Positions 1,718 through 20,925 of a stretch of 24,000 nt of DNA are shown in pieces; the stretch's first letter is position 1, and each line of letters opens with the position of its first letter. The translations under genes and the position numbers were made by a program. This DNA is from Liquorilactobacillus uvarum DSM 19971. Lineage in GTDB: Bacteria; Bacillota; Bacilli; Lactobacillales; Lactobacillaceae. The DNA lies in contig NZ_AZEG01000014.1 of NCBI RefSeq assembly GCF_001434935.1, positions 23,825 to 47,824 on the forward strand. Reading direction: 5' to 3'. The notes under the pieces were generated by a model, which saw only the letters and a list, made by a program, of their open reading frames with translations, was not told the DNA's origin and ran no database searches.

Positions 1718-4176
1718 TGGTTGATAACTCGGGAGAAAATAGTAATATTCAAGAATTGTCGCTTGAAGCGGTCATGGGAGAGCGTTTCGGAAGATATTCA
1801 AAGTATATTATTCAAGAGAGAGCCTTACCTGACATTCGTGATGGACTAAAACCTGTTCAACGCCGTATTTTATATGCTATGAACCAAGATGGAAATACAT
1901 ACGACAAGGCTTTTCGTAAATCAGCTAAGTCCGTCGGAAATGTAATGGGTAATTTTCATCCCCATGGAGATAGTTCGATTTATGAAGCCATGGTTCGTTT
2001 GAGTCAATCATGGAAACTGCGTGAGCCTTTGATTGAAATGCATGGGAACAACGGGTCAATGGATGGTGACCCGCCAGCTGCTATGAGGTACACTGAAGCG
2101 CGTTTGAGCAAGATCTCAGGTGAGATGTTGAATGACATCGAAAAGGAAACAGTTGATTTTGTTCCTAATTTCGATGATACAGAAAATGAACCGACTGTTT
2201 TACCAGCGCGTTTCCCCAATCTGCTTGTGAATGGTGCAACGGGAATTTCAGCGGGATATGCTACAGAGATTCCGCCACACAATCTTCATGAAGCAATTCA
2301 GGCAGTAATCTATCTTATGGAGCATCCTAAAGCTAAGCTTGATAAGCTAATGGAGTTTGTTAAAGGACCGGATTTCCCAACGGGAGGAATTGCCCAAGGA
2401 ATTGACGGAATTATCAAAGCTTATACTACTGGTCGTGGACGAGTTATGCTGCGTTCCAAAACTGAAATTGAACAGTTAAAGGCAAATAAAGAACAGATTA
2501 TCGTTACTGAGATACCATATGAAGTCAATAAAGCTTTGCTGGTCAAAAAAATTGACGAAATTAGGCTATTAAAAAAAGTTGAGGGAATAGCTGAAGTAAG
2601 GGATGAAAGTGATCGTGAAGGGCTGCGGATTGTTATTGAGCTTAAACGAAATGCTTCAGGTCAAGGAATTCTAAATTATTTATTCAAGAATACAGATTTA
2701 CAGATATCATATAATTTCAATATGGTCGCAATAAACAATAAACGTCCGGAGCATGTTGGACTTAAGGCAATATTGAGTGCTTATTTAGAACATCAGAGAA
2801 CGGTCACTACTAAACGTACTAAATTTGATCTTAGAAAAGCACAAGAAAGAAAACATATTGTTAGTGGCTTGATTAAGGCGTTGTCTATTTTAGATCAAGT
2901 TATTAAAACGATTCGTGCCAGCAAAAATAAAAAAGACGCAAAAGATAATTTAGTTGAGCAGTATAGCTTCACCGAAGCACAAGCGGAAGCAATTGTTTCT
3001 TTACAACTGTATCGTTTAACTAACACTGATGTAACGGCGCTTCAAGCAGAATTTGATGAACTGCAGCAAAAGGTGCAAAATTATCAGGCGATTTTGGCAG
3101 ATCCAAGCATGCTTGATAGGGTTATAAAAAAAGAATTGCGTATTATTGACAAAAAATATACCTCACCGCGGAAAACGATTATTCAAGATCAAGTTCAACA
3201 ACTTAAAATTGAAACTGAAGTTCTCATTGCACCAGAGGATGTTGTGGTAATGGTAAGTCGAGACGGTTATTTAAAGAGGAGTTCGCTGAGATCATTTAAA
3301 GCATCCGGAAAAGATGATAATGGCTTGAAAAGTGATGACTTAGTAATTTTTCAGGACATAGTCAATACACTTGACCATCTCTTTATATTCACAGATAAGG
3401 GGAATGTTATCTATCGGCCAATACATGAGATTCCAGAGTACAAGTGGAAAGAAACGGGAAAACATTTATCACAAACAGTCAGCATGGATAAAAATGAAAA
3501 AATTATTCAGGCCTTTAGTTTTCATGATCTCAAACAAAAAGGAAATTTCATTTTTGCTTCTAAAGAAGGGTTCATCAAGCAGACAGCTTTGACTGATCTG
3601 CAGCCAGGACGAACTTATAAGAGCAGAGCTGCTCAATGTATGAAACTTAAAACAGATAGTGATCGTCTACTTATGATAAATTATCTTCCTGAAGATACTA
3701 AAAATGATTTACTATTTGTTCTAGCAATAACGCATGGCGGATATGGGCTCAGATACAAGTTAAATGAAGTGCCAGTTAATGGTTCTAAGGCAGCTGGTGT
3801 CAAAGCAATTGATCTTCGTGAAGATGTATTAGCTTCGGTTATTCTTGTTCAGGAAAAAACGCAGGTTGGTATTTTAACTCAACGTGGAGCGTTTAAGAGA
3901 ATGAAGGTTTCTGAGATAACACCAACTGCTCGTGCAAGGCGCGGAGTTCAGATATTGAGAGAACTTAAACGGAGTCCTCATCGTGTCGTTCTGGTGAAGG
4001 CTTTGAAAAATGGTGGAAAACTTAGAGTTACAACAGAAAAAATGAAGACAATTACGATTGATCCGTTCGAACATCCTAATGTAGACCGTTATTCAAATGG
4101 TTCTTTTGTCATCGATGTCGAAGAATTCGGTATTCCAATATGGGCTGAGATCATTGAAACGCAACAAAAGGATTAA
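1717..4176 (+). CDS. parC: DNA topoisomerase IV subunit A
   Basis: 819 aa. Motifs: [19 protein letters not shown]; the [27 protein letters not shown] (ParC-style SQxWKxRE context); catalytic Tyr in [11 protein letters not shown] see no QRRGGKG-type GyrA box in the C-terminal domain. Translationally coupled to parE. Confidence 0.85.
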
Positions 4177-4216
4177 ATAACTGTGCATATTAAACTGAGA
4201 TATCAGCGGTTAGGAA

Positions 4217-4281
4217 ATATTTAGAAAGAATAAAGCTGCAGCAAATTAAAATTTTGCCGCAGCTTTATTCTTTCTAAATAT
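4217..4281. terminator. Long hairpin between convergent parC and rqcH, likely a bidirectional terminator
   Basis: Arms 4217-4245 and 4253-4281 are complementary over 29 bp with one mismatch (core: atttagaaagaataaagctgcagcaaa / tttgccgcagctttattctttctaaat). It lies in the 133-nt gap between two converging stop codons. The flanks are A/T-rich. Confidence 0.6.
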
Positions 4282-4309: not shown

Positions 4310-6016
4310 TTATTTTTTCAAAGAATCGACTAATTGTCTTTGAGGGGTTACAAAAAGTGTTTTTTGTCCTTCATAAATAACAAAACCGGGTCTTGCACCA
4401 TTGGGTTTGCGTATTTTTTTAACTTGAACATAGTCTACCGGTACAGTTGCAGAAGTTCGCGATTTAGAGAAATAGGCGGCTAAGTTAGCTGCCTCAAGCA
4501 ACGTTTGCTGGCTCGGATCATTTGAGTAGATAATGACATGAGATCCGGGGATGTTTTTAGCATGCAACCAAATATAATTTTTATGTGCAGTTTTCAAAGT
4601 TAAACGATCATTTTGAAGATTGTTTTTCCCAACAGCTATTTTTGTGTTGTCACTAGAAAAATACGTAGCCGGTTGGCTGATTTTATCTTTGCGTACTTTC
4701 CCGTGCTTTGTGCGTTTTTGAGCTTTAAGATAACCTTGCTGTTGTAGTTCAATTTTAATATCTGGGAGATCTTGAGGCTCTGCAAGTTCGATTTGGGTTT
4801 GCAATTCTTCGAGATAATTAATTTCTGATTGTGTCAAACCAATCTGCTGCTTAAGAAAAGATACCGCATTTTTAAGCTTTTGATATTTTTTAAAGTATTT
4901 TTGAGCATTTTGGGAAGGTGATAATTGGTTAGACAGGGAAATTTTGACTAGCTTATCTTCTTCATAGTAATTTGGTAATTCTATTGAGGTCATCCCGCGT
5001 TTTATCTGAAAAAGATAGGTCGTAAGCAATTCACCTTTAACACGATATTGGTCGGCCTTACCAGTTGAACTCAACTCTTTTTTTAACTTTTTGAGCTTTT
5101 TACGATTTTTCTGCAAATTATTTTTGATGACATGAATCAATTGACTTCCTTGTTGTTGAACTCGATCAGAAGTCGCTTTATCTCGGTAAAAAATATCTAA
5201 TAGTTCGCTTAAAGTTGAAAATGTTTTCTTAGTCCTCTCAGCAGAGTAGGCAAAACAAGTAAAAAAGGTTTTTTTACCATCAATAAGACTGGGAGTAGGG
5301 TTGGTTGTCTGATGCAAAACATTCTGCCATCCGAATTCAGGATCCTTGGCATAAGCATGCAATTGTTCGGCAAGGTACAATGCATGTTCTTTTGCAATTC
5401 CCTGGTAAGCTTTGCTTAATTGGCCTGCAAGTACCTCTTGGTTTGGATAGTCCTTGATCAGATTTAAGTAGTATTCCGTATCATCTGTAAATGGATCTAG
5501 ACGTTCTTGTTTTGGAGGTCTATTGTATGTTGCGTTTGGTAAAAGCGTCCGAAAACGATTTTGATCAGGACCTATATGCTTGATTGTATCAATAATTAAA
5601 TTTCGAGATGGATCAATCAAAATAACATTGCTGTAACGACCCATGATTTCAATACTTAAGACCAAAGGCAGTCTGTCACCAAGTTCATTTCGTGTCTCAA
5701 AACTTAAGTAAACTACACGATCATTTTCAAGCTGTTCGACTTTAGTTAACTTTGCTCCTTCGAGATATTTCCGGAGAGCCATTGTAAAATTAGTTGGAAC
5801 AGGAGGGTTCTTATATGGCATATCTGATATTTGAATGCGTGCATAGTTCGGATGTGCTGATAAAAGCAATGGGAAATTATGCCGCTGAGCTCGAACGGTA
5901 ACTATCACTTCATTAGGAAAAGGCTGTGAAATACGACCGACTCTTCCAGAAACCAGTTTTTGGAGCTCATGAACCATGGCATGCGTAAATAAACCATCAA
6001 ATGGCATGGAGACCAA
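4310..6016 (-). CDS. rqcH: RqcH/Rqc2-family ribosome quality-control protein (NFACT; formerly annotated fibronectin-binding protein A / YloA)
   Basis: 568 aa. N-terminus is MPFDGLFTHAMVHEL, the middle is coiled-coil-like, and the C-terminus carries NYIWLHAKNIPGSHVIIYS (NFACT-R/DUF814-type motif). The ORF-track start at 6016 is a TTG. The ATG at 6007 (MPFDG...) is an equally plausible start. Confidence 0.8.
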   Translation of the reverse strand: MVSMPFDGLFTHAMVHELQKLVSGRVGRISQPFPNEVIVTVRAQRHNFPLLLSAHPNYARIQISDMPYKNPPVPTNFTMALRKYLEGAKLTKVEQLENDRVVYLSFETRNELGDRLPLVLSIEIMGRYSNVILIDPSRNLIIDTIKHIGPDQNRFRTLLPNATYNRPPKQERLDPFTDDTEYYLNLIKDYPNQEVLAGQLSKAYQGIAKEHALYLAEQLHAYAKDPEFGWQNVLHQTTNPTPSLIDGKKTFFTCFAYSAERTKKTFSTLSELLDIFYRDKATSDRVQQQGSQLIHVIKNNLQKNRKKLKKLKKELSSTGKADQYRVKGELLTTYLFQIKRGMTSIELPNYYEEDKLVKISLSNQLSPSQNAQKYFKKYQKLKNAVSFLKQQIGLTQSEINYLEELQTQIELAEPQDLPDIKIELQQQGYLKAQKRTKHGKVRKDKISQPATYFSSDNTKIAVGKNNLQNDRLTLKTAHKNYIWLHAKNIPGSHVIIYSNDPSQQTLLEAANLAAYFSKSRTSATVPVDYVQVKKIRKPNGARPGFVIYEGQKTLFVTPQRQLVDSLKK

Positions 6017-6187
6017 CTCGCTTTCTTAACAATTATGGTGCTGATATTCCTTATTTGCTGTTTATAATTGTACCTTTTATGCAGAAAAAGCGCAAAAAGG
6101 CAACTAAAGTATAGTTTGATAGTGCAATTAAAGTTTTTATGTTGCGCTTGAAGTTTAAATATAACATAATGACTTTGTAGATTAAAT

Positions 6188-10425: not shown

Positions 10426-11577
10426 TTAACGTTTCTTAGTGTTTTTAGAACATCTTAAATGTCGTTTATAACCAAAGGTTCGATCAATTTCATGCATTTT
10501 TTGTCTGAATACATCTCTCGGTGCTTTATAGTTTAAAACAGCCTTTGGCCGTTTATTAATCTTATGTAATACGCGACGAATATCATCATTGTTAACATAT
10601 TCAAAATGTGTTTTCTTTGGAAAATATTCCCGCAACATCCGATTAGCATTCTCGTTCGAACCACGTTCAGCCGGACTGTACGGGTGTGCAAAATACGCCA
10701 TAAGTTCGTATTCACGTTGCACTTTATTAATCACAAAGTGATTGGCAAATTCAAATCCATTGTCAAATGTGAATGATTGAACAATATGTTTTGCACGTTT
10801 CCCCAATAAGTCCATAAATTGATCCAAGACCTTACATACCGCTTTTCCAGACTGAGATTCAGCTTTTAAAACAATATAATAACGTGTTTTACGTTCACAA
10901 AACGTCACAAAGACTTGCCGGTAACCTTTTTTTGGTAGAACACAATCAACTTCCCAGTGACCAAAAACTTTACGCTTATCAACACCTACTGGGCGTTCTT
11001 CAATTGAATGTTTAAGTGGGCGAACCAGCTGTTTTTCTTTTTGCTTCACCCTCTTTCTTTCAGTTTTTAATTCAGCCGCCCTCTTTTCTTTAGCGTTCAT
11101 TTCAACTGTTCTTTGCGGTCTCCCTCGACGATACTTATGACGATAACGTAAATTAGATTCAGAAACGCCTGGGATCATACCGCGGTAAATCCAGTTATAA
11201 ATTGTATTGCGACTCAATTTTAATTCTTTATGAGTTTCAGCAATCATTTGTGGTGACCATTTATCATCTAAAATCCTTTTAGCAATAATCCGTGCTTTTT
11301 TCTTTGAATACTTTTTTTTAGTACCAATCCGATCTTTTCTTAAGTCGGCATATTGTTGGGCTTCTTCGGCATTATAACGATAAGCATGCCATTTACGTGG
11401 TCTCAATTTATAATCCGAAAAGCGTTGACTCCGACGGAGTTCATTATTAATCGTCATAACTGTTCGGTGTAACCGCCGCGCAATTTCTGCCTGATTATGA
11501 ATTCCTTCGGTGTTCCATAGATAATCAATTTGACCACGCTCAAATGGCGTTAAGTGATAAGCTTGTTTTCTCTGCAT
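10426..11577 (-). CDS. IS30-family transposase (element ends not resolved)
   Basis: 383 aa. N-terminal HTH region (LTPFERGQIDYLW..., NTIYNWIYRG). DDE triad context typical of IS30: GHWEVDCV, FTFDNGFEFANH, ERGSNENANRMLREYFPKK. RBS GGAGGGAGGA lies directly upstream of the ATG at 11577. Confidence 0.9.
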   Translation of the reverse strand: MQRKQAYHLTPFERGQIDYLWNTEGIHNQAEIARRLHRTVMTINNELRRSQRFSDYKLRPRKWHAYRYNAEEAQQYADLRKDRIGTKKKYSKKKARIIAKRILDDKWSPQMIAETHKELKLSRNTIYNWIYRGMIPGVSESNLRYRHKYRRGRPQRTVEMNAKEKRAAELKTERKRVKQKEKQLVRPLKHSIEERPVGVDKRKVFGHWEVDCVLPKKGYRQVFVTFCERKTRYYIVLKAESQSGKAVCKVLDQFMDLLGKRAKHIVQSFTFDNGFEFANHFVINKVQREYELMAYFAHPYSPAERGSNENANRMLREYFPKKTHFEYVNNDDIRRVLHKINKRPKAVLNYKAPRDVFRQKMHEIDRTFGYKRHLRCSKNTKKR

Positions 11578-11824: not shown

Positions 11825-11839
11825 AGGTGTAATTAAAAG

Positions 11840-12427
11840 CTAACCGAAATCGATTTTATCCAGCATATGTTCCCTACTTACCTGATCTAATCCAAGGTAT
11901 TTTAAGGTCATAGCCTCACTACTATGATTAAGCAGCTGCATAACTAAACCAATATTATAATTTGTTTGTGTATAGACGCGATATGCGCCAGTTTTACGCA
12001 TAGTATGCGTACCTAAATAATTAATTCCTAGCAAGTCACCAACTCGTGCCATAATCTTATAAAACTGTTTTTCAGTAATATGACAACTAGGATTTTTAGT
12101 TGAAGGAAAAAGCCATTCAGACTGCAAATTATGTTTAATTAGCCATTGGTGATATTTTAATAAATCACTTTCAACTGGCTTTAAATATAAAGTATTAGAT
12201 TTGCCAGTCTTTTTATCTCGAATATAGGCATTATGCTTAATTGAACCATCAGGACTATAAATATCCTGGTACTTTAAGCGCATAATATCACTTACTCGTA
12301 AAAGCGTAGCTTTACCAACTTGAAAAATCATATAGTTACGCTGACCGGCTTTAAAATCTTCTAGCAAACATTCCTGAACTTGTTGCAAGACATTGGAATC
12401 TTTAATTGGCATAACAATCTGTTTCAT
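11840..12427 (-). CDS. Small tyrosine recombinase/integrase (catalytic domain only, 195 aa)
   Basis: The full catalytic set is readable: R44 (TLLRVSD), K73/K76 (DKKTGKS), H141-x-x-R144 (GTHTMRKTG), H168 (LLNHSS), Y177 (MTLKYLG). There is no N-terminal core-binding/SAM-like domain. Strong RBS (AAGGAG, 9 nt before the ATG). Confidence 0.85.
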   Translation of the reverse strand: MKQIVMPIKDSNVLQQVQECLLEDFKAGQRNYMIFQVGKATLLRVSDIMRLKYQDIYSPDGSIKHNAYIRDKKTGKSNTLYLKPVESDLLKYHQWLIKHNLQSEWLFPSTKNPSCHITEKQFYKIMARVGDLLGINYLGTHTMRKTGAYRVYTQTNYNIGLVMQLLNHSSEAMTLKYLGLDQVSREHMLDKIDFG

Positions 12428-12431
12428 AATT

Positions 12432-12670
12432 TCAACTCCTTATTAAACGCATTATTTTTAACAATAGTTTAAATTCTTTATTAACAAAGAAAATGCCTTC
12501 ATCTGCAAACGAAATTCCATCTCTTGAAATGCAAGCAATCTCTTTCCTATTTTTAGATTTTAAATACACATATATATCATCAGTACCACATACTTCTAAA
12601 GTATGATAATTCTCAACGGAATACTCTTGATTACATTTTTTACTAATCCTAATAACTTTCTAAATTTCAT
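12432..12670 (-). CDS. Conserved small ORF (~80 aa) upstream of int, readable only with a -1 frameshift (programmed slip or homopolymer pseudogene)
   Basis: An ATG at 12670 follows AGAGGTGAG. That frame stops after 24 codons. The -1 frame continues as KCNQEYSVENYHTLEVCGTDDIYVYLKSKNRKEIACISRDGISFADEGIFFVNKEFKLLLKIMRLIRS and stops at 12432-12434, 4 nt before the int ATG. The two frames meet at GTA_AAA_AAT (A6 run, plus-strand T6 at 12636-12641). In the copy-2 comparison, nucleotide differences are mostly synonymous in the -1 frame (caa/cag, tcc/tct, gag/gaa, aat/aac). Confidence 0.4.
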
Positions 12671-12699
12671 AAAACTCACCTCTTTCATAATAATATACG

Positions 12700-12725
12700 A
12701 AAAAAAACGCTCCTTTTTAGGGGCG
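12700..12725 (-). terminator. Rho-independent terminator after the 132-aa gene
   Basis: Minus-strand read: cgcccc-taaaaa-ggagcg followed by T8 (the plus-strand A8 at 12700-12707). Confidence 0.7.
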
Positions 12726-12848
12726 ATTAGTCAAATATATTAAAGTAAAAACGCTAATGATAAAACCTAAGATATATAAATATTGGTAATAAAGGAATCT
12801 GTAGGGTCTATTTCGGCAAATGGACCCTTGCAAGGTTAATTAAAGAAT

Positions 12849-13309: not shown

Positions 13310-13405
13310 TTATTGATCCCAAAATGATTTTAATATATAAATTTTAATTTTCAAATTGTAACCATGCCAAAATTCACCGTCTACAAAAATTGCAAATTTA
13401 TTTAT
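13310..13405 (-). pseudogene. Fragment of a second, divergent vsr gene
   Basis: Translation NKINKFAIFVDGEFWHGYN...KSFWDQ* matches the core of the intact Vsr at 16339-16761 (ITKYHIAIFIDGEFWHGYK...RSYWIPK). Only ~30 codons remain. The N-terminal two thirds and the C-terminus are missing. The DNA is diverged from the intact copy, so this is not a recent duplication. Confidence 0.7.
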
Positions 13406-13406
13406 T

Positions 13407-15062
13407 TTATTTCCAAATGTCATCAGGTTCGTTTTCAGAATCAATCCAAATAAACTGAAGTTCAATATGATCGCTTTTTTTAATAAACCGAATACCATTT
13501 ATTCCTATTTCGTTTAGCTTGTTATATGTTAATGGCTCATACTCTTTTAATTGAAATACATCTCTTAAAATCCACTTTCCCAATATTTTTTGTGAGCCAA
13601 CAGATTCAATTGCTTTTCTGTTTTGTTGATTCACATATGCATTAATCACATCATTTGAAGGTAGAAACATAAGCTTAAACGTTCTTAATTCCTTATCTCT
13701 AACATATTTTTTCGATCCCGAAATAAAGATATTTTTTACAAAAAAATTAGGATACTGCTGATGAAATTGAGTCGATTTTGGAATTCTAATTTCTAATTCA
13801 TCGGCTGGTCGATATACCATACTTCCAACATCTTTTTTGATTTTTTGATTATTAATTTGAGTGATAAAATGCATTAATTCTAAACGAATAGTGACCATCC
13901 TATCTTTATCTTCTTTTGTTGTCCATTTCTTCAATAATAATACTTTCAAACGATCGATTATATAATCAAGATTCTTTTTTGAAATTATATCGGAATAATC
14001 ATTTTCAAACTTTTTTATGCGTTTTTCTCTATATTCATTTTCCCGACCCATTTTGCTTTGACCATAAAAAGCATTATAACCAGAGTATGGTTTAATTTCT
14101 ATATACCAGGAATGAGACTCAGAAATTTTAGTCTTAACCGGGACAGCTCTACGTTTAAGGTTATCTTCACTCATATTTTCAAAAAATTTAAAAGCATCTT
14201 TAACATAAGTTACAGGCCATTTTTCCAAAACCATATTTTTATTGTTAAATGACATTAATAATTGGCTGTCCGCCGAAGTATATTTATAGCAATGATTAAT
14301 ATCATGAAAAATGAAATTTGTCGGATTTCTTACACCCGTACACCCATCAATTGCTATACTTTCAAGGTCAATAGGCATGTAGGTAGTTTCACCAACTAAA
14401 ATCTCAGGCTTGTTATTCTTAGGAGTTGGCATTAAAACATGATATACTGCTTCAACGGAAATGTGATCTCGATTTTTAAACCCCTTTATATTTTCTTCTG
14501 ATGATCTAATTCGACTGTTTCGTACTGTAGCTATTTTTTTTGCAAGACTTAAATAAAGATCATGATTAATTTTATTTATATCTTTTTTTGTAGATAGCCC
14601 CTTTGAGTTTTCTTTGATTTTATCTATAATTTCGGTCCATTGATCCGCACTAATGGCTTTAAATTGTGCAATTTTTTGATCTCCAGAGTTAAGCCCAAAT
14701 GTCTTAATGCCAATTAGAAAACGTTTTTTAATTTTATCATCTATATGATCAATAGAAGCATCATAGGAAGTATTTCCTATATCTTCTCCAGTAGCATTAA
14801 ATGATTTTTGAAAAGCAGTTTCTTGAAATTTAGAATTAACAATAGGAGGTACTATGCTTTCTTCATCTTCGGTTTTTTGTGCAAAAGCTTCACTTAAACT
14901 AGCAAAATTTGTAATAAGCCTTTCATATAATTCCTTCTGATCATTTGGTAATTGTCCCCACAATAAAAACACCCCCGCATTAAGAATATTCTTATTATAT
15001 ACTAAAAGAGCAATTAACGTTTTATTATCGCTAATTGCTCCCCCAAATTCAAATTTTTTCAA
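13407..15062 (-). CDS. Putative type II restriction endonuclease: uncharacterised ~400-aa N-terminal region plus C-terminal B3-like DNA-binding domain
   Basis: 551 aa, last gene of the vsr-M-R operon. Its TTG start overlaps the MTase stop by 14 nt. C-terminal pattern: LEIRIPKSTQFHQQYPNFF...TFKLMFLPSN...RKAIESVGSQKILGKWILRDVF...INGIRFIKKSDHIELQFIWID (B3/BfiI-C-like). I could not read any PLD HxK, HNH, GIY-YIG or Walker A motif. Confidence 0.6.
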   Translation of the reverse strand: MKKFEFGGAISDNKTLIALLVYNKNILNAGVFLLWGQLPNDQKELYERLITNFASLSEAFAQKTEDEESIVPPIVNSKFQETAFQKSFNATGEDIGNTSYDASIDHIDDKIKKRFLIGIKTFGLNSGDQKIAQFKAISADQWTEIIDKIKENSKGLSTKKDINKINHDLYLSLAKKIATVRNSRIRSSEENIKGFKNRDHISVEAVYHVLMPTPKNNKPEILVGETTYMPIDLESIAIDGCTGVRNPTNFIFHDINHCYKYTSADSQLLMSFNNKNMVLEKWPVTYVKDAFKFFENMSEDNLKRRAVPVKTKISESHSWYIEIKPYSGYNAFYGQSKMGRENEYREKRIKKFENDYSDIISKKNLDYIIDRLKVLLLKKWTTKEDKDRMVTIRLELMHFITQINNQKIKKDVGSMVYRPADELEIRIPKSTQFHQQYPNFFVKNIFISGSKKYVRDKELRTFKLMFLPSNDVINAYVNQQNRKAIESVGSQKILGKWILRDVFQLKEYEPLTYNKLNEIGINGIRFIKKSDHIELQFIWIDSENEPDDIWK

Positions 15063-16260
15063 TCATATAGAAACTTGCACTTTTTTTCTTTTGAACGAGT
15101 TTTAAATATTCATCATCAGATAAAAGGTTCTTTTCTGATTCTAAAACAATTTTTTTTAAGTTATCAATAGAGTCAGAATATTCTTTTACATAACTTTCGC
15201 CTTCAAAGTGACTACCAATATTAGAATATATTAAAGCATACCTACCATGATGTCTATTATCGTCAATCTTTATTTGATCATTGATTGCTTTACAAATTTG
15301 TAAAGCAATTCGATGAATAACTGGAACAACAACCGAATTACCAGCTTGTTTATATAATTGTCCGTTAGCGATATCTGGTAATTTAAATGTTTCTGGATAT
15401 CCTTGAGCATTAAATGTTTCTTTAGGTGTTAACTTTCTAATTCTATCAGAATTAGTAAGAATTAGAGGAACATTGTGTCCACCAGTTCCCATATTTGCGG
15501 TTAATGTGGGTACCACTCCAGCTTTGTTTTCACGAACGTATTGTCGGCGCCATTGATAAATAGTATCGTGACTTGTCATATCGTTGACAAGATTATCATA
15601 GAAAGTCTGTTTGTCTCTTTTATAATAATATTTTTCATCTTTTGTGCCATCGAAATCTATGATGTCATGGATTGTTTTTGTTAATTTAATAGGATCGGGA
15701 AAATTGAATTTAACATAGTCAGTTGCATATTTAAATCCTACAATGTATATGCGTTCTCTATTTTGAGGAACATTCCCGTAATCTTTTCCATTAAGAACGT
15801 GCCACTTAATATAATATCCATTTTCTACTAAAGCTTCTCTAATAACCTTAAATGTATTTCCATGGTCATGTGTAACCAGATTTTTAACATTTTCGATAAA
15901 AACTACCCTGGGCTTTTTAGCTTTAATAATCCTTAGCATTTCAAAAAAAAGGTTTCCCCTCTCATCTTCAAAACCCTTTCGATAACCTGCAATTGAAAAT
16001 GCTTGACAAGGAAACCCGCCCATAATCACATCGCAGTTAGGTATCTCCTTAGTACTTACTTCATGAATATCTCGACCATCTAAAAGTGTATCAGGGTTGT
16101 TTTTTGCATACGTTTTCCGAGCATTTTTATCGAATTCGTTCGCATAGACAACTCTGAACTTGCCAGTCTGTTCAAAACCTAGCTCAATTCCACCAACACC
16201 AGCAAAAAAAGAAGCAATACTATATTTTTGTGTATTGATGGAACTCACAGAATTTGTCAT
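15049..16260 (-). CDS. DNA (cytosine-5)-methyltransferase
   Basis: 403 aa from the ATG at 16260 (RBS AGAGGAA). Canonical motifs: I FAGVGGIELGF, IV GGFPCQAFSIAG, VI FIENVKNL, VIII QNRERIYIVGF, IX RKLTPKETFNAQGYP, X YKQAGNSVVVPV. The ORF-track start at 16329 has no RBS. Confidence 0.95.
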   Translation of the reverse strand: MTNSVSSINTQKYSIASFFAGVGGIELGFEQTGKFRVVYANEFDKNARKTYAKNNPDTLLDGRDIHEVSTKEIPNCDVIMGGFPCQAFSIAGYRKGFEDERGNLFFEMLRIIKAKKPRVVFIENVKNLVTHDHGNTFKVIREALVENGYYIKWHVLNGKDYGNVPQNRERIYIVGFKYATDYVKFNFPDPIKLTKTIHDIIDFDGTKDEKYYYKRDKQTFYDNLVNDMTSHDTIYQWRRQYVRENKAGVVPTLTANMGTGGHNVPLILTNSDRIRKLTPKETFNAQGYPETFKLPDIANGQLYKQAGNSVVVPVIHRIALQICKAINDQIKIDDNRHHGRYALIYSNIGSHFEGESYVKEYSDSIDNLKKIVLESEKNLLSDDEYLKLVQKKKSASFYMIEKI

Positions 16261-16338: not shown

Positions 16339-16761
16339 TTATTGTGAACTTCTCATATAAAAGAGAATTAACTCCGTACAATAATCCGGATTTTTTACAA
16401 CTTCTTTTGACCAAAATCTAACAACTCTCCATCCTAAAGATTGAAGCTTTGAGTTAACTAGTAAATCCCTTTTCATGTTTTTTTCAATCTTGGGAATCCA
16501 ATAACTTCTATGTGTATGTATATTATTTTGATTTTCGCTCCATTTATATCCATGCCAAAATTCGCCATCAATAAATATAGCAATATGATATTTTGTTATT
16601 GCTATATCAGGTTTTCCTGGTAGTTTTTTAAAATTTTTCCTATATCTAACACCATTGTTCCATAGTTTCTTTCTAAAAAGTAATTCTGGTTTGGTATCAA
16701 CAGATTTTATGTGGCTCATGTTTTTTGAACGTTGTTCAGCAGTAAGAATATGATTAATCAT
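16339..16761 (-). CDS. vsr: Very-short-patch repair endonuclease
   Basis: ~140 aa. Motifs: LTAEQRSKNMSHIKS, PGKPDIA, IAIFIDGEFWHG, LGWRVVRFWSKE (E. coli Vsr-like pattern). The start may be at 16761 (MINHIL, AAGGGA upstream) or 16779. Confidence 0.9.
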   Translation of the reverse strand: MINHILTAEQRSKNMSHIKSVDTKPELLFRKKLWNNGVRYRKNFKKLPGKPDIAITKYHIAIFIDGEFWHGYKWSENQNNIHTHRSYWIPKIEKNMKRDLLVNSKLQSLGWRVVRFWSKEVVKNPDYCTELILFYMRSSQ

Positions 16762-16794
16762 ATAATTTCCCTTCAACATTTTTATCTATTATTG

Positions 16795-17196: not shown

Positions 17197-18192
17197 TAAT
17201 TTAAAAACTGACCGAAATCAATCTTATCTAGCATATGTTCTCTACTTACTTTGCTCCTAATTCAATATTTGGCACATGTTTTTCTAGATACTTGTTCTGA
17301 TTCTTTCAGTGTTGAACCAATTAATATAATTTGATTGCGTATAAACACGATATGCGCCAGTTTTACACATAGTATGTATACCTAAATAATTAATTCATAA
17401 CAAGTCACCAACATGTGCCATAATTTTATAAAATTGCTTTTCGGTAATATGATGATTATATCTTTTAGTTGAAGGAAAAAGCAATTCAGGCTACAAATTA
17501 TGTTTGACTGAACCATCAAGACTATAAACGTCTTGAATAATATCACTAACTCTTAAAAACGTAGCTTTACCAATCTGAAAAATTGTATAGTTACGTTGAC
17601 CAGCTTTAAAATTTTCCAGCAAGCATTTTTGAACTTGTTTTAAGACAGTTGAATCTTTGATAGGTAAGATAATTTGTTTCATGGTTTCAACCTCTTAATT
17701 AAACACATTATTTTTAATTCTGTTTGAATAAAGAAAATGCCTTCATCAGTAAATGAAATTCCATCTTTTGAAATACAAGCAAGTATGTTCCCATTTTTAG
17801 ATTTTATATACACACATACTTCTAAAAAACGATAGTTTTCAACAGAATACTTCTGATTATACTTTTAATAATTTTTTTAAATTGCACAAAGTTTACCTCT
17901 TTCACAACAATAAATACGAAGAATCATTTCTGTCATTTGATTACATTCAACGTAAGTTTTAAAAAATATTTTTTCTTGTAATTCTGAGACTTCTGTGGTT
18001 AAATTGTTTTATGAATATCAAACAGTTGGCTAGTTAAAATTTCTAGTTATCAAATTAGGTGCAAATGAAAAAAAGCGCTCTTTTAGGGGCACTTTTCTTT
18101 ATATATTCATTTAATAACCCTTATATACAACCATTGATAAATGACGTTGATATAATAATACTTTATAGGGTCTATTAGAGATTTATGGTCCG
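17197..18192. repeat. Copy 2 (decayed) of the ~1 kb recombinase module
   Basis: See copy 1 (11830-12830). Relative to copy 1, copy 2 carries a ~105-bp deletion and smaller deletions inside int, a deletion inside the small ORF, and a ~130-bp insertion (about 17930-18060). Confidence 0.8.
17209..17682 (-). pseudogene. Tyrosine recombinase pseudogene (paralogue of 11840-12427)
   Basis: The N-terminal 50 codons are nearly identical (MKQIILPIKDSTVLKQVQKCLLENFKAGQRNYTIFQIGKATFLRVSDII). The frame then breaks. The remaining DNA still aligns with copy 1 to the stop region (ctgaccgaaatcaatcttatctagcatatg vs ctaaccgaaatcgattttatccagcatatg), with internal deletions and stops. Confidence 0.85.
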
Positions 18193-18240: not shown

Positions 18241-20925
18241 TTAATGTCTACTAAAATTATAACGCTCTTCTCGCTTTTTAAAAGCTTTTTCACCACCTTC
18301 AAGCACTTCACATATTGCGTTTTGCATGTTGCTGTCTTCAATGGATCCTTGTCTATAACAAAATTGATATCCTGGAATACCTTCTTTAGTCATTTCTTCA
18401 GCTAAAATCACGCATTCACTGTCACCACCAACTAACACGTTAGCATTATGAGTAACGATAAATAATTGTCTGTGTTGCTTTTGTTCGCGTAAGTATGAGA
18501 CAAGTTCCTCGTAAATTGCTTTATTGTCAAGTTCATCTTCTGGTTGATCAATTAGAAAAGGTCTATCATCTTTATCCAAGCTTAACTGGAGCATTAATAA
18601 AATAAAAGCTTGTTTTCCTTCAGACATTGTATGGAATTCTTGTCCTTTGTAAGTAATATTATATTTAGTTTGAATGAAATCCATGTTAGAAAATTGTTCA
18701 AACCATGAATAAAGATTCAAATTTGCCCTGTACGGATTGTCCTCGTTAATAGAATTTATTTCCAGCTTCAGACATTGCATCATCATTTTTTTAATGCTTT
18801 CAGCGTTAATAGAATTAGGATTATCAATATCAATAATACCAGCTTCAATTTCATTTTTGAAAGTACCCCGGCCTGTTTTGAAATTGCTTTGGACCAAGCT
18901 GATGAATTTATCTGTATTGATAGATGAAATAATTTGGAAATTTAGATTTTTGTCATCAACTTTATAAAGATCATGTGTGGTTAAAGAATCTCCAAAATCT
19001 ATTTCATTTACTAAATCATTGAAAAGAGCGAAACGACTTGAATTCAACTTCTTTAATTCATTATTAGCATCCTCAACGACTCTAAGAGAATGTTGCTGCT
19101 TTGTTAAACTTTCTTGAAATTTTTTGAGTTCTGGAGATTGTTCCTGCAAATTTGTATATTGTTCATAGATAGGAGCTTTTTTTGATTTTTGAATTAGGTT
19201 ATTTTTATCTTCAATGAACAGCTTTTTTTCTTGAATTCTATCATCAACATATTTAGCAAAATCTTGATTTAATTTATCAATTTTTGATTTGAAGATTTCA
19301 AAAACCTGTTTAGTTACATCACGCGTATATTGTTGAGATTGTGGATTCAATTGAATTTCAACGTTATCTAGAATAAGAGATAGTTCATCGATATCTTTTT
19401 GAGTGTCTTTGATCTGACTTTCAAAATCGTATATTTTTTGAATCATTGTGTCTATAGATTTTTGGTCAATATCTTCAATTTGTTCTTGCAATACTTGAAT
19501 ATTTTTTTTTAACTTATCAATATTACCTTCAAGAGTTCTAATAGGTTGTTGAGAACTAATCTTAGAAGTCTGTTCCTTTATTTTAATATTTAATTCTTTA
19601 AACTGATTAATTTTTAGAACAATTGAGTCATGTTTTTTACGCTGATATGTTTCAATTTTTTCTTTTATTTTACTTATATCTGTTATCCTATACAGAGTAC
19701 CCTCAATAAATTTATTTCTTTTATCATCGCTGCGAGCAATTTCTTGAAGACCATCTTGATAAATAAATTTAACTCCTTCTTCTCCACATGGAATGGTATC
19801 GTCTGCATATTTTAGTACACAATTTTCACTTAAATTATTGATTAAATTATCATAATTGGAATTATCACTTTTAAAATGTTGCACATTACTAGAAAGTTTA
19901 CTAATTATAGATAATAGCACAGATTTTCCACTTGAACGCCCACCTATAATTGTGTTTAAACCATCTGAAAATTCAAGTTTTTTAATTCCAAATTTTTCAC
20001 TTGGAAGTTCAAGAGTTTTAATGATTTTTGACTTTACTGGTGGTTCTGGTTTGTTAGCTTGGATTTTAATTCGTAAATCAGGTTCATAAGTGATTTGTTT
20101 CAAACCTTCAAAAGTTTTCATTGCTTTAATCCAAGTTCTTGAAGCTTCAGGGAAATCCTTAATTTTTTCTATACTGTGAGCATCGCATCCAGTTACAGAA
20201 GCGTAAATATTTTTATAATTATTTTCAGGGTTCAAAGCATATAGTTTATCATGGTATGCATTTTGGGTTCTGGCCTGTAAAAAATCTATATTTCCCCTTA
20301 CAAAATCTTTGCCGTTACTTGAACCATTACCATCTTTTAAGTTTATTCCATCACCACTATTGGGAATCATCATTAGAACCTTTTCTTTATAATTGTTTCC
20401 AAACGTATCTCTAAGTGATTTTTTTACGGAATCTGTAGTTGGTAAATAGCCAAAATTATTATCTTTAATAATTTCTTCTAAATCATCGGCAAAGTTAATA
20501 TTTTGACCATTGGATTTTGAAATACTTAATCCTCTTAAAAATTTTTCTATACATTCTTTCTGTTCATCTGGCCTGAAAATTAAGTGTATATTGACATAAC
20601 TTGTAGATTTATGACTATCTTCTCTTTTTTTGGAAACAAGATCGCTAACTCTTATTTCAACGTTTGGAAATAAAGTAATATTATCATTCAATCCCCAATT
20701 ACTTCTATTCCGTTTAAGTTTAAAAAAGTTCTTTGCTGAAAAATAATCTGTTATTCCTAGAACATCCGCCCCATAATTATTTAATTCTGCACAGTATTTT
20801 TTCCAAACAAGTTCTTTATCAGTTTGACTGCCATTTTGGTCTTTGAAGTTATCATTCATTTGAGTTTCTGGTGTGTGAATATGAAGATCCCATCTATACC
20901 ATTGTGACATAAGTTGTTTTTGCAA
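18241..20925 (-). CDS. PHP-domain phosphoesterase fused to an SMC/Rad50-like ABC ATPase (single-gene defence candidate, possibly Ppl-like)
   Basis: 894 aa with a TTG start at 20925, 7 nt after GGGGAGAG. PHP motifs: WDLHIHTPET, GITDYFS, NVEIRV, VTGCDAHS. Walker A IIGGRSSGKSVLL. A ~250-aa heptad-rich K/E/Q coiled-coil region. Signature-like MSEGKQAFILL, Walker B PFLIDQPEDELD, and H-loop FIVTHNANV. Confidence 0.7.
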   Translation of the reverse strand: MQKQLMSQWYRWDLHIHTPETQMNDNFKDQNGSQTDKELVWKKYCAELNNYGADVLGITDYFSAKNFFKLKRNRSNWGLNDNITLFPNVEIRVSDLVSKKREDSHKSTSYVNIHLIFRPDEQKECIEKFLRGLSISKSNGQNINFADDLEEIIKDNNFGYLPTTDSVKKSLRDTFGNNYKEKVLMMIPNSGDGINLKDGNGSSNGKDFVRGNIDFLQARTQNAYHDKLYALNPENNYKNIYASVTGCDAHSIEKIKDFPEASRTWIKAMKTFEGLKQITYEPDLRIKIQANKPEPPVKSKIIKTLELPSEKFGIKKLEFSDGLNTIIGGRSSGKSVLLSIISKLSSNVQHFKSDNSNYDNLINNLSENCVLKYADDTIPCGEEGVKFIYQDGLQEIARSDDKRNKFIEGTLYRITDISKIKEKIETYQRKKHDSIVLKINQFKELNIKIKEQTSKISSQQPIRTLEGNIDKLKKNIQVLQEQIEDIDQKSIDTMIQKIYDFESQIKDTQKDIDELSLILDNVEIQLNPQSQQYTRDVTKQVFEIFKSKIDKLNQDFAKYVDDRIQEKKLFIEDKNNLIQKSKKAPIYEQYTNLQEQSPELKKFQESLTKQQHSLRVVEDANNELKKLNSSRFALFNDLVNEIDFGDSLTTHDLYKVDDKNLNFQIISSINTDKFISLVQSNFKTGRGTFKNEIEAGIIDIDNPNSINAESIKKMMMQCLKLEINSINEDNPYRANLNLYSWFEQFSNMDFIQTKYNITYKGQEFHTMSEGKQAFILLMLQLSLDKDDRPFLIDQPEDELDNKAIYEELVSYLREQKQHRQLFIVTHNANVLVGGDSECVILAEEMTKEGIPGYQFCYRQGSIEDSNMQNAICEVLEGGEKAFKKREERYNFSRH

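Follow-up and report, generated by a model that had tools for sequence, protein, structure and literature searches.

Candidate endonuclease of a vsr-methylase cassette in Liquorilactobacillus uvarum: a probable, diverged PD-(D/E)XK nuclease domain joined to a C-terminal B3-like domain

The 24,000-nucleotide stretch of Liquorilactobacillus uvarum DSM 19971 analysed here (contig NZ_AZEG01000014.1, positions 23,825 to 47,824; called the window, and numbered from its first letter) carries on its minus strand a cassette of three genes in the order vsr, 5-methylcytosine (m5C) DNA methyltransferase (methylase) and restriction endonuclease candidate (Table 1). The third gene, which is our subject, very likely encodes the cutting enzyme of a cytosine-methylation restriction system. 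An ORF check of the window confirmed an uninterrupted open reading frame (ORF) of 551 codons from a TTG at 13407..15062 (-), behind the vsr and C5-methylase genes and on the same strand, in agreement with the initial annotation of this DNA. The same annotation had the ORF overlap the methylase stop by 14 nt and made it the last gene of its operon, and neither statement was borne out. The start common to all relatives, of the form MW..L, is the TTG at 14963, which has a GGGGG ribosome-binding site just 5′ of it and lies behind a gap of about 85 nt from the methylase stop; RefSeq entry WP_057737483 (Liquorilactobacillus uvarum) represents the same form of 518 amino acids (aa), shorter than the 551-codon ORF by 33 N-terminal codons. 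Since the relatives start at this TTG, and since the 33 additional codons are not conserved among them and contain a terminator-like hairpin, the overlap is, most likely, an artefact that arose from choosing the longest ORF. Past the endonuclease stop, a vsr remnant and an ORF consisting of a B3-like domain only follow on the same strand. Residues are numbered below according to the 518-aa form; adding 33 gives the earlier 551-aa numbering.

Table 1. Features of the cassette and its surroundings, in window coordinates
Feature	Coordinates	Strand	Evidence
vsr (very-short-patch T:G mismatch endonuclease), with which the cassette begins	16339..16779	-	Pfam Vsr 5.4e-31; TIGR00632 2.3e-41
C5 cytosine DNA methyltransferase, 403 aa from ATG 16260 (ORF extends to 16329), stop 15049..15051	15049..16260	-	PF00145 1.6e-90; TIGR00675 1.5e-106
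Terminator-like stem-loop followed by a U run, between methylase stop and endonuclease start	15002..15046	-	RNA fold -19.7 kcal/mol, z -7.0, no shuffle equals
Restriction endonuclease candidate, 518 aa from TTG 14963	13407..14963	-	WP_057737483, 100% identity
N-terminal domain, aa 1-265, predicted PD-(D/E)XK nuclease with second beta-sheet	14169..14963	-	PADLOC profile; Foldseek
Candidate active site, E48 ... D68-x16-G85-I-K87 (551-aa form: E81, D101, G118, K120)	14703..14822	-	conservation
Invariant Q96 and K97 after the candidate active site	14673..14678	-	conservation
B3-like domain, C-terminal	13410..14123	-	PF20731 5.1e-5; PADLOC PDLC03479 3.6e-16; Foldseek 4rdm/4rd5
Helical insertion, aa ~303-383, four helices, inside the N-arm of the B3-like domain	13815..14057	-	long-form subfamily only; pLDDT 94-98
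Remnant of a second vsr gene, just past the endonuclease stop	13310..13406	-	translation ...FAIFVDGEFWHGYN... matches vsr core
Stand-alone B3-like ORF, 132 aa	12849..13247	-	PF20731 1.9e-8; own ribosome-binding site AGGGGAG
IS30-like transposase (rve + HTH_38), at the edge of a low-G+C island starting near 9.9 kb	10426-11577	-	

The restriction-enzyme reading is strongly supported by genomic association: the pair of methylase and endonuclease candidate is conserved across genera and gene orders. Homologues of the candidate were collected by a word-index search at E ≤ 0.001, which returned 660 proteins, nearly all of them named 'hypothetical'. The methylase was surveyed separately by scanning for its target-recognition region, with one genome per species, and the pairing with an endonuclease was read in the 80 best loci. 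The region was found in at least 591 genomes, and in 77 of the 80 loci the adjoining protein has both the N-terminal domain (N-domain) and the B3 domain of the candidate. Of the three exceptions, one (L079) is a contig end, one (L085) has a small ORF at 3837-4253 that matches the PADLOC REase_II profile PDLC03476 (1e-63), and one (L088) has a 270-aa ORF at 5339-6151 with a canonical E54..P-I-D74..D85-I-K87 motif and no family match. The endonuclease candidates of the latter two are likely isoschizomers. The overall picture is that to be expected where one methylase type is served by several unrelated or distantly related endonucleases. As to gene order, the endonuclease gene lies directly 3′ of the C5 methylase gene in L. 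reuteri and S. gordonii, in unrelated neighbourhoods; a 433-aa relative, 23% identical, follows vsr and methylase on the L. johnsonii plasmid NZ_CP062070 (L009, 3498-4799); and in B. altitudinis a small controller-type helix-turn-helix gene precedes a 412-aa relative, the pair being divergent from the C5 methylase, which is the classical Type II layout. The window methylase is 74%, 66% and 53% identical to the partner methylases of L. johnsonii, S. gordonii and B. altitudinis, respectively, and shares with all three its target-recognition region (...YQWRRQYVRENK..PTLTANMGTGGHNVPLIL...). No helicase or ATPase partner gene is conserved beside the family members in the loci of L. reuteri, S. gordonii, L. 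johnsonii and B. altitudinis. The assignment as a restriction endonuclease candidate, made from context in the initial annotation, is supported by the conserved pairing.

Some features of these loci may be recorded for themselves. After motif X the window methylase has a C-terminal extension of about 65 residues (~335-403, window 15049-15255 (-)), which the partners from L. johnsonii and S. gordonii also have and the 334-aa partner of B. altitudinis lacks; no domain was recognised in it. In Floricoccus tropicus (L083, 4329-10147) the methylase is accompanied by a 527-aa long-form endonuclease and, 1.8 kb further on, by a 381-aa short-form relative, with two unannotated ORFs in between, so that one methylase apparently serves two diverged endonucleases belonging to the same superfamily. 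In oral streptococci (S. mitis group; L015-L078, L095-L117) the cassette is found at a variable site immediately downstream of valS, where strains differ in the gene that separates valS from the methylase, and it is present in 7 of 25 streptococcal valS contigs from metagenomes.

The intergenic region between methylase and endonuclease suggests how the two genes may be expressed. Downstream of the hairpin in the window lie a TATAAT-like box and the GGGGG ribosome-binding site. In L. reuteri (z -5.0) and in S. gordonii (z -3.3), hairpins that differ in sequence are found at this same place and are followed by a -10-like box; intergenic hairpin and -10-like box are found in three genera (window 15002-15046; L001 4935-4957; L005 4940-4968). 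Judging from sequence and predicted folding, the hairpin may function as a terminator or attenuator, and the endonuclease would probably be expressed from its own promoter behind it, in which case its synthesis would be delayed relative to that of the methylase. It is possible that the intergenic hairpin is a device for delaying or limiting endonuclease expression where a controller protein is absent.

Fold prediction and profile searches indicate, with fair though not full confidence, that this Type II cassette endonuclease consists of a diverged PD-(D/E)XK nuclease domain and a B3-like domain. That the enzyme is modular, with a nuclease-like domain at the N-terminus and a B3-like domain at the C-terminus, had been proposed before and is borne out here; the N-terminal region is, however, about 265 aa long and not about 400 aa as first thought, since residues ~303-383 form a helical insertion inside the B3 domain. 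When searched alone (aa 1-262), the N-domain matches the PADLOC REase_II profile PDLC03446 ('Type II restriction enzyme') at E 2.2e-9 over positions 5-227 of 237, and the same profile is matched by all 20 of 20 diverse relatives, at best with 4e-41. An AlphaFold2 model of the complete protein has a predicted local distance difference test score (pLDDT) of 88, and a model of the N-domain only has a pLDDT of 84 and a predicted template modelling score (pTM) of 0.77. Foldseek places SwaI (4e-3) and HinP1I (1.8e-2) at the top of the PDB matches of the N-domain-only model, with HincII, FokI and BamHI and also a bunyaviral cap-snatching endonuclease; among these fold matches HinP1I gives the best template modelling (TM) score (0.35, target-normalised), over 218-266 columns of a 247-residue chain. 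Against BFVD, a library of predicted viral structures, two uncharacterised phage proteins rank first, and later matches include herpesvirus UL24, RecE-like exonucleases, HamA, a bunyaviral endonuclease and an annotated PD-(D/E)XK protein. From profile and model together, the N-domain has a probable PD-(D/E)XK fold.

A candidate active site can be placed on this probable fold. The residues E48, D68, G85 and K87 are invariant in 68 close and 27 distant relatives, and at about 23-35% identity the invariant positions of the N-domain are Y13, E48, D68, G85, K87, K97, N149, Y174, H175, D221, Y226 and F239, with Q96, R148 and E192 nearly invariant among distant relatives. In the AlphaFold2 model E48 lies in the helix 44-54, D68 starts the strand 67-75, and G85-x-K87 ends the hairpin partner strand 78-88. 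The modelled order, helix with E, strand with D, strand with xK, is the layout expected of PD-(D/E)XK enzymes, and one can presume that E48, D68 and K87 would be catalytic and form a metal site. The initial annotation had listed as a weak candidate the aspartates D101, D105 and D108 followed by the strand RFLIGIKTFG; of these, D101 is the invariant D68 and the strand contains G85-I-K87, this D...K pair being kept without exception down to 23-28% identity, whereas D105 and D108 are unconserved. A non-acidic residue at the position of the second acid is known from the catalytic motif of HinP1I, whose sequence, when checked, does show S-D62...Q81-x-K83. A suggestive but weak parallel is offered by the 270-aa ORF of L088, with the spacing E54-x19-D74-x10-D85-I-K87, in which hhalign aligns D74, D85 and K87 with D68, G85 and K87 (pairwise E 0.009). 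No relatives of this ORF were found on viral contigs, and both viral-contig matches to the endonuclease family are full-length proteins.

Several points weigh against this interpretation. The position of the second acid in the motif is taken by an invariant glycine, Gly85; the link to the L088 ORF has an hhalign probability of only 4%; and the fold matches of the N-domain are weak (E 4e-3 to 0.5, top probability 0.72, TM-scores 0.21-0.35). No solved PD-(D/E)XK enzyme matched the N-domain by sequence or profile: a search of solved chains including MvaI and EcoRII found no detectable sequence similarity to it, PDB sequences gave nothing at E ≤ 10, and hhalign of the N-domain profile with HinP1I gave a probability below 1%. 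Finally, the N-domain was never convincingly found on its own: ~330 cluster representatives and 207 profile matches all have it joined to B3, and the two N-domain-only matches that were inspected, both on long contigs, come from apparently disrupted or duplicated loci. This fits a B3 domain that is indispensable rather than accessory. One might ask whether the N-terminal region instead represents a nuclease fold, or a catalytic chemistry, that was not known before and is here combined with B3. The lack of any Pfam, NCBIfam or PDB sequence match, the fold-match TM-scores below 0.4 and the replacement of the canonical (D/E)xK by GxK would all agree with it. The weak Pfam matches that 26 family members do give point to no consistent family. 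We nevertheless hold such novelty to be improbable, because the match to the 'Type II REase' profile PDLC03446 is full-length, almost all of the best-ranking structural neighbours from two libraries are PD-(D/E)XK nucleases, and the invariant E...D...xK sits on just the helix-strand-strand elements expected of that fold. The proposal of a new catalytic partner without signature, as made in the initial annotation, is likewise not sustained by the profile match, the fold neighbours and the invariant D...K, and it lacks support because PD-(D/E)XK is already a known partner of B3 in EcoRII and UbaLAI (PMC5766183). The absences on which that proposal was built did hold: in a pattern scan of the translation PLD (phospholipase D) HxK(x)4D, GIY-YIG and Walker A motifs were absent, as were HxK and CxxC, and there is no HNH motif either.

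The B3-like nature of the C-terminal part, also claimed in the initial annotation, was confirmed by profiles and by structure prediction alike. The match to Pfam PF20731 (RE_NgoFVII_C, B3-like) stands exactly at the gathering cut-off (23.8 bits, cut-off 23.8), and distant relatives reach 34-53 bits; a short-form relative matches PADLOC PDLC03479 at E 7e-98, and the family profile finds the solved B3 domain of R.NgoAVII (4rd5/4rct) at E 1.6e-11. Foldseek with the modelled B3 region (block pLDDT 78-94) returned 4rdm/4rd5 at E 1e-5 to 7e-5 with probability 1.0 and target-normalised TM-scores of 0.66-0.70, that is, the pseudobarrel fold that had been anticipated. The stretch of residues ~303-383 is an insertion within B3, not a linker: it separates the motifs S-G-x-N and R-P-x-x-E, which are contiguous in NgoAVII and in relatives of 363-454 aa, and its ~80 residues are absent from those relatives as well as from R.NgoAVII. 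It is the N-arm of B3, in which the insertion lies, that makes most of the base contacts in NgoAVII (PMC4267654). By residue count on the profile alignment, the clamp residue K275 and the base-reading R285 of NgoAVII are replaced here by Y443 and E453, so that the specificity of NgoAVII (GCCGC) is not transferable.

With a B3 domain of this type, a true NgoFVII/NgoAVII-type enzyme, made of a PLD nuclease and B3, might have been expected. R.NgoAVII, R.CglI and NgoFVII combine a PLD nuclease with a C-terminal B3 domain and are ATP-dependent, with an N/H helicase subunit. The candidate resembles them in its homologous C-terminal B3, with the motifs S-x-L-N, R-P-x-x-E, a conserved K and L-G-K-W in common, in the N-terminal position of the nuclease and in having a single m5C methylase as partner. 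In addition to the shared B3, the product names that NCBI gives to short-form relatives and to the plasmid gene of L. johnsonii would suggest the same. The nuclease here is not PLD, however: the protein has no HxK, its sole invariant histidine (H175) being without a following K, there is no PLD Pfam match, and the 50 best matches of the N-domain-only model include neither the PLD half of 4rct nor BfiI nor Nuc. Nor is there a helicase or ATPase partner gene, and the B3 N-arm carries the helical insertion that R.NgoAVII does not have. In view of the missing HxK, profile match and fold match we reject a PLD nuclease, and consider such an assignment extremely unlikely. The relatives L009, P0306 and P0318 are named 'restriction endonuclease PLD domain-containing protein' or 'NgoFVII family' though they have no PLD domain or HxK, and these names seem to have been carried over from the shared B3 domain.

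As regards function, we propose that the methylase would mark host DNA at a site that is probably symmetric or quasi-symmetric, that Vsr would repair the T:G mismatches arising by deamination of 5-methylcytosine, and that the endonuclease would cut unmarked DNA. Cleavage would presumably be Mg2+-dependent at E48/D68/K87, with one catalytic centre per chain, and double-strand cleavage would then need two sequential nicks or transient dimers. How the labour is divided between the two domains is less certain. We tentatively favour, by analogy, a mode like that of UbaLAI and DpnI, in which the N-domain would be a monomeric cutter of HinP1I/MspI type that reads the site itself and B3 would bind a second copy of the site or serve as a tether. 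That a monomeric enzyme has an additional domain for binding DNA is an established design (PMC7026639, PMC5766183). In size the N-domain equals a complete monomeric enzyme, and a second beta-sheet is conserved in it; in the Foldseek comparison it aligns with the greater part of HinP1I, SwaI and HincII; and the invariant Q96/K97 are found nine and ten residues past the candidate catalytic lysine, where HinP1I has Q93/K96, which are base-reading residues (PMC7026639).

It could also be, though we think it less probable, that the protein is a Type IIS-like reader-cutter, the PD-(D/E)XK counterpart of BfiI, with B3 as the sole reader and a non-specific N-domain that would dimerise transiently and then cut at a fixed distance. 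In that case one methylase would suffice since the site would be quasi-palindromic. Such sites are those of BbvI (GCAGC/GCWGC) and NgoAVII (GCCGC/GCSGC). The sequence relationship of B3 to that of R.NgoAVII speaks for this arrangement, the more so as B3 is the specificity module in the NgoAVII clade and lies C-terminal to the nuclease (PMC4267654); so do the invariable fusion of the N-domain to B3, the presence of the FokI cleavage domain among the fold matches and the existence of single-methylase Type IIS systems (PMC4081073). Yet the N-domain, with its 265 aa and second sheet, aligns in Foldseek over 218-314 columns with complete Type IIP enzymes and over only 81-142 with FokI, the invariant Q96/K97 stand at base-reading positions of HinP1I (PMC7026639), and the L088 ORF may be a stand-alone relative beside the same methylase type. 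That the candidate would be a stand-alone, ATP-independent PD-(D/E)XK counterpart of BfiI and NgoAVII, in which only an NgoFVII-type B3, remodelled by the helical insertion in its main DNA-reading arm, reads the sequence while a GxK-variant nuclease makes its cut a fixed distance away, seems to us possible but doubtful.

Returning to the UbaLAI/DpnI-like mode that we favour, the comparison with characterised enzymes shows both parallels and departures. Type IIE enzymes such as EcoRII and UbaLAI require two copies of their site, of which one is occupied by a non-catalytic effector domain. UbaLAI belongs to Type IIE, is monomeric and consists of an EcoRII-N-like B3 and an MvaI-like PD-(D/E)XK domain (PMC5766183), and UbaLAI and EcoRII resemble the candidate in the fusion of a B3-like domain to a PD-(D/E)XK cutter (PMC5766183); with B3 acting as tether or effector, they are the likeliest functional analogue. 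They differ in that their B3 is N-terminal, the order being reversed, and of another clade. Neither EcoRII-N nor UbaLAI-N appears in the 50 best matches that Foldseek gives for the endonuclease model, and the catalytic domains of EcoRII-C/PspGI and MvaI/BcnI gave no PDB sequence or profile match and also fall outside the 50 best fold matches. The monomeric enzymes HinP1I, MspI and HhaI share with the N-domain two beta-sheets, a non-acidic residue in place of the second acid (Q81 in HinP1I) and a Q/K pair after the lysine, whereas profile-level similarity is missing (hhalign probability < 1%), the TM-score is below 0.4 and there is no B3 in them. DpnI also has an N-terminal PD-(D/E)XK domain followed by a second DNA-binding domain, with the logic of a monomeric cutter (PMC4081073, PMC7026639), but its effector is a winged helix, and it needs methylated DNA and has no partner methylase. 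With regard to the Type IIS-like alternative, the closest comparison is BfiI. BfiI is a Type IIS enzyme with PLD chemistry and a C-terminal B3, and has one active site per dimer. Like the candidate, it has its nuclease at the N-terminus and B3 at the C-terminus and stands alone, and no ATP requirement would be expected for either; unlike the candidate it uses PLD, and its B3 is outside the 50 best fold matches.

The family occurs widely and is uncharacterised, yet it does not represent a new kind of nuclease; it is a variant of a known modular design. The known B3 restriction enzymes have either a PLD partner, with B3 C-terminal (BfiI, NgoAVII, CglI), or a PD-(D/E)XK partner, with B3 N-terminal (EcoRII, UbaLAI). 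Should biochemistry confirm the domain assignment, this would be the first described family uniting an N-terminal PD-(D/E)XK cutter with a C-terminal reader of the NgoFVII B3 type, and PLD and PD-(D/E)XK, two nuclease chemistries without relation to each other, would then both have been joined to the same B3 module. If the Type IIS-like reading were true, it would represent a so far undescribed Type IIS architecture, one that many streptococci and lactobacilli possess. We found no paper on a protein joining an N-terminal PD-(D/E)XK-like domain to an NgoFVII-type C-terminal B3; REBASE was outside this search, and a characterised member may exist. The Type II restriction-enzyme profiles of PADLOC already cover both halves (PDLC03446 for the N-domain, PDLC03479 for B3). 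Database names such as 'NgoFVII family' and 'PLD domain-containing' would be corrected for relatives without a PLD domain. With the cognate methylase type present in genomes of at least 591 species, among which oral streptococci and lactobacilli of food or gut are numerous, so common a family is likely in practice to hinder the transformation of these bacteria and their infection by phages.

The target sequence was approached from the methylase and from word statistics. The best solved relative of the methylase is M.HhaI (3e-59), and since its target-recognition region aligns poorly, GCGC cannot be inferred as the target. A text search of the literature for the recognition-region peptide of the methylase found nothing, and the phage methylases found with the same region have no stated specificity. 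For two independent sets of loci that carry the cassette, 512 five-letter words were compared with a third-order Markov expectation, and CCWGG was the most depleted 5-mer in both (observed/expected 0.50 and 0.45). As a control we used metagenome contigs anchored on valS, the neighbour of the cassette in the S. mitis group, and there the CCWGG ratio was 0.51 in streptococcal carriers, 0.53 in non-carriers and 0.70 in distant taxa. Because non-carriers and distant taxa also show the depletion, it is generic and uninformative on the system, and it was rejected as evidence for the target. GCCGC was lowest in a small third set (0.61), but not in the larger sets. In loci L015-L174, CCWGG followed by GGWCC were the most depleted 5-mers in every set examined, including distant taxa without the system, and GATC was the most depleted 4-mer in the carrier sets.

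Just downstream of the endonuclease gene lie traces of other elements. The vsr remnant has 73% DNA identity over 13351-13406 to the intact vsr (16539-16594). The 132-aa B3 ORF is named 'NgoFVII family restriction endonuclease' by NCBI; the word-index search found only itself, and BLASTP showed no similarity between it and the B3 domain of the endonuclease. Since the related loci with gene tables that were examined do not contain it, and since it is without relatives, a role as partner subunit was rejected, and it probably stands outside the system. Together, the remnant and this ORF look like the wreck of an earlier restriction system, or the ORF like an orphan DNA-binding protein.

The first ~9.9 kb of the window are chromosomal core, with genes for topoisomerase IV, an RqcH-like NFACT protein, DegV and signal peptidase, and from ~10 kb on the G+C content drops to 27-31%. 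Given the low G+C content, the transposase and the recombinase copies that bracket the cassette, the system rides on a mobile island. Those copies belong to direct repeats of ~1 kb (11833-12812 and 17201-18176; 81-88% identical), each of which has a small tyrosine-recombinase gene, intact at 11840-12427 and broken at ~17382-17682, which suggests an array of recombinase-associated defence cassettes. Just beyond the broken copy, an 894-aa protein (18241-20925 (-)) with weak SMC_N and AAA_21 (AbiEii-type ATPase) matches may be the cargo of a neighbouring cassette and a defence candidate. The low-G+C stretch also holds a phage-lysozyme/NlpC-P60 protein.

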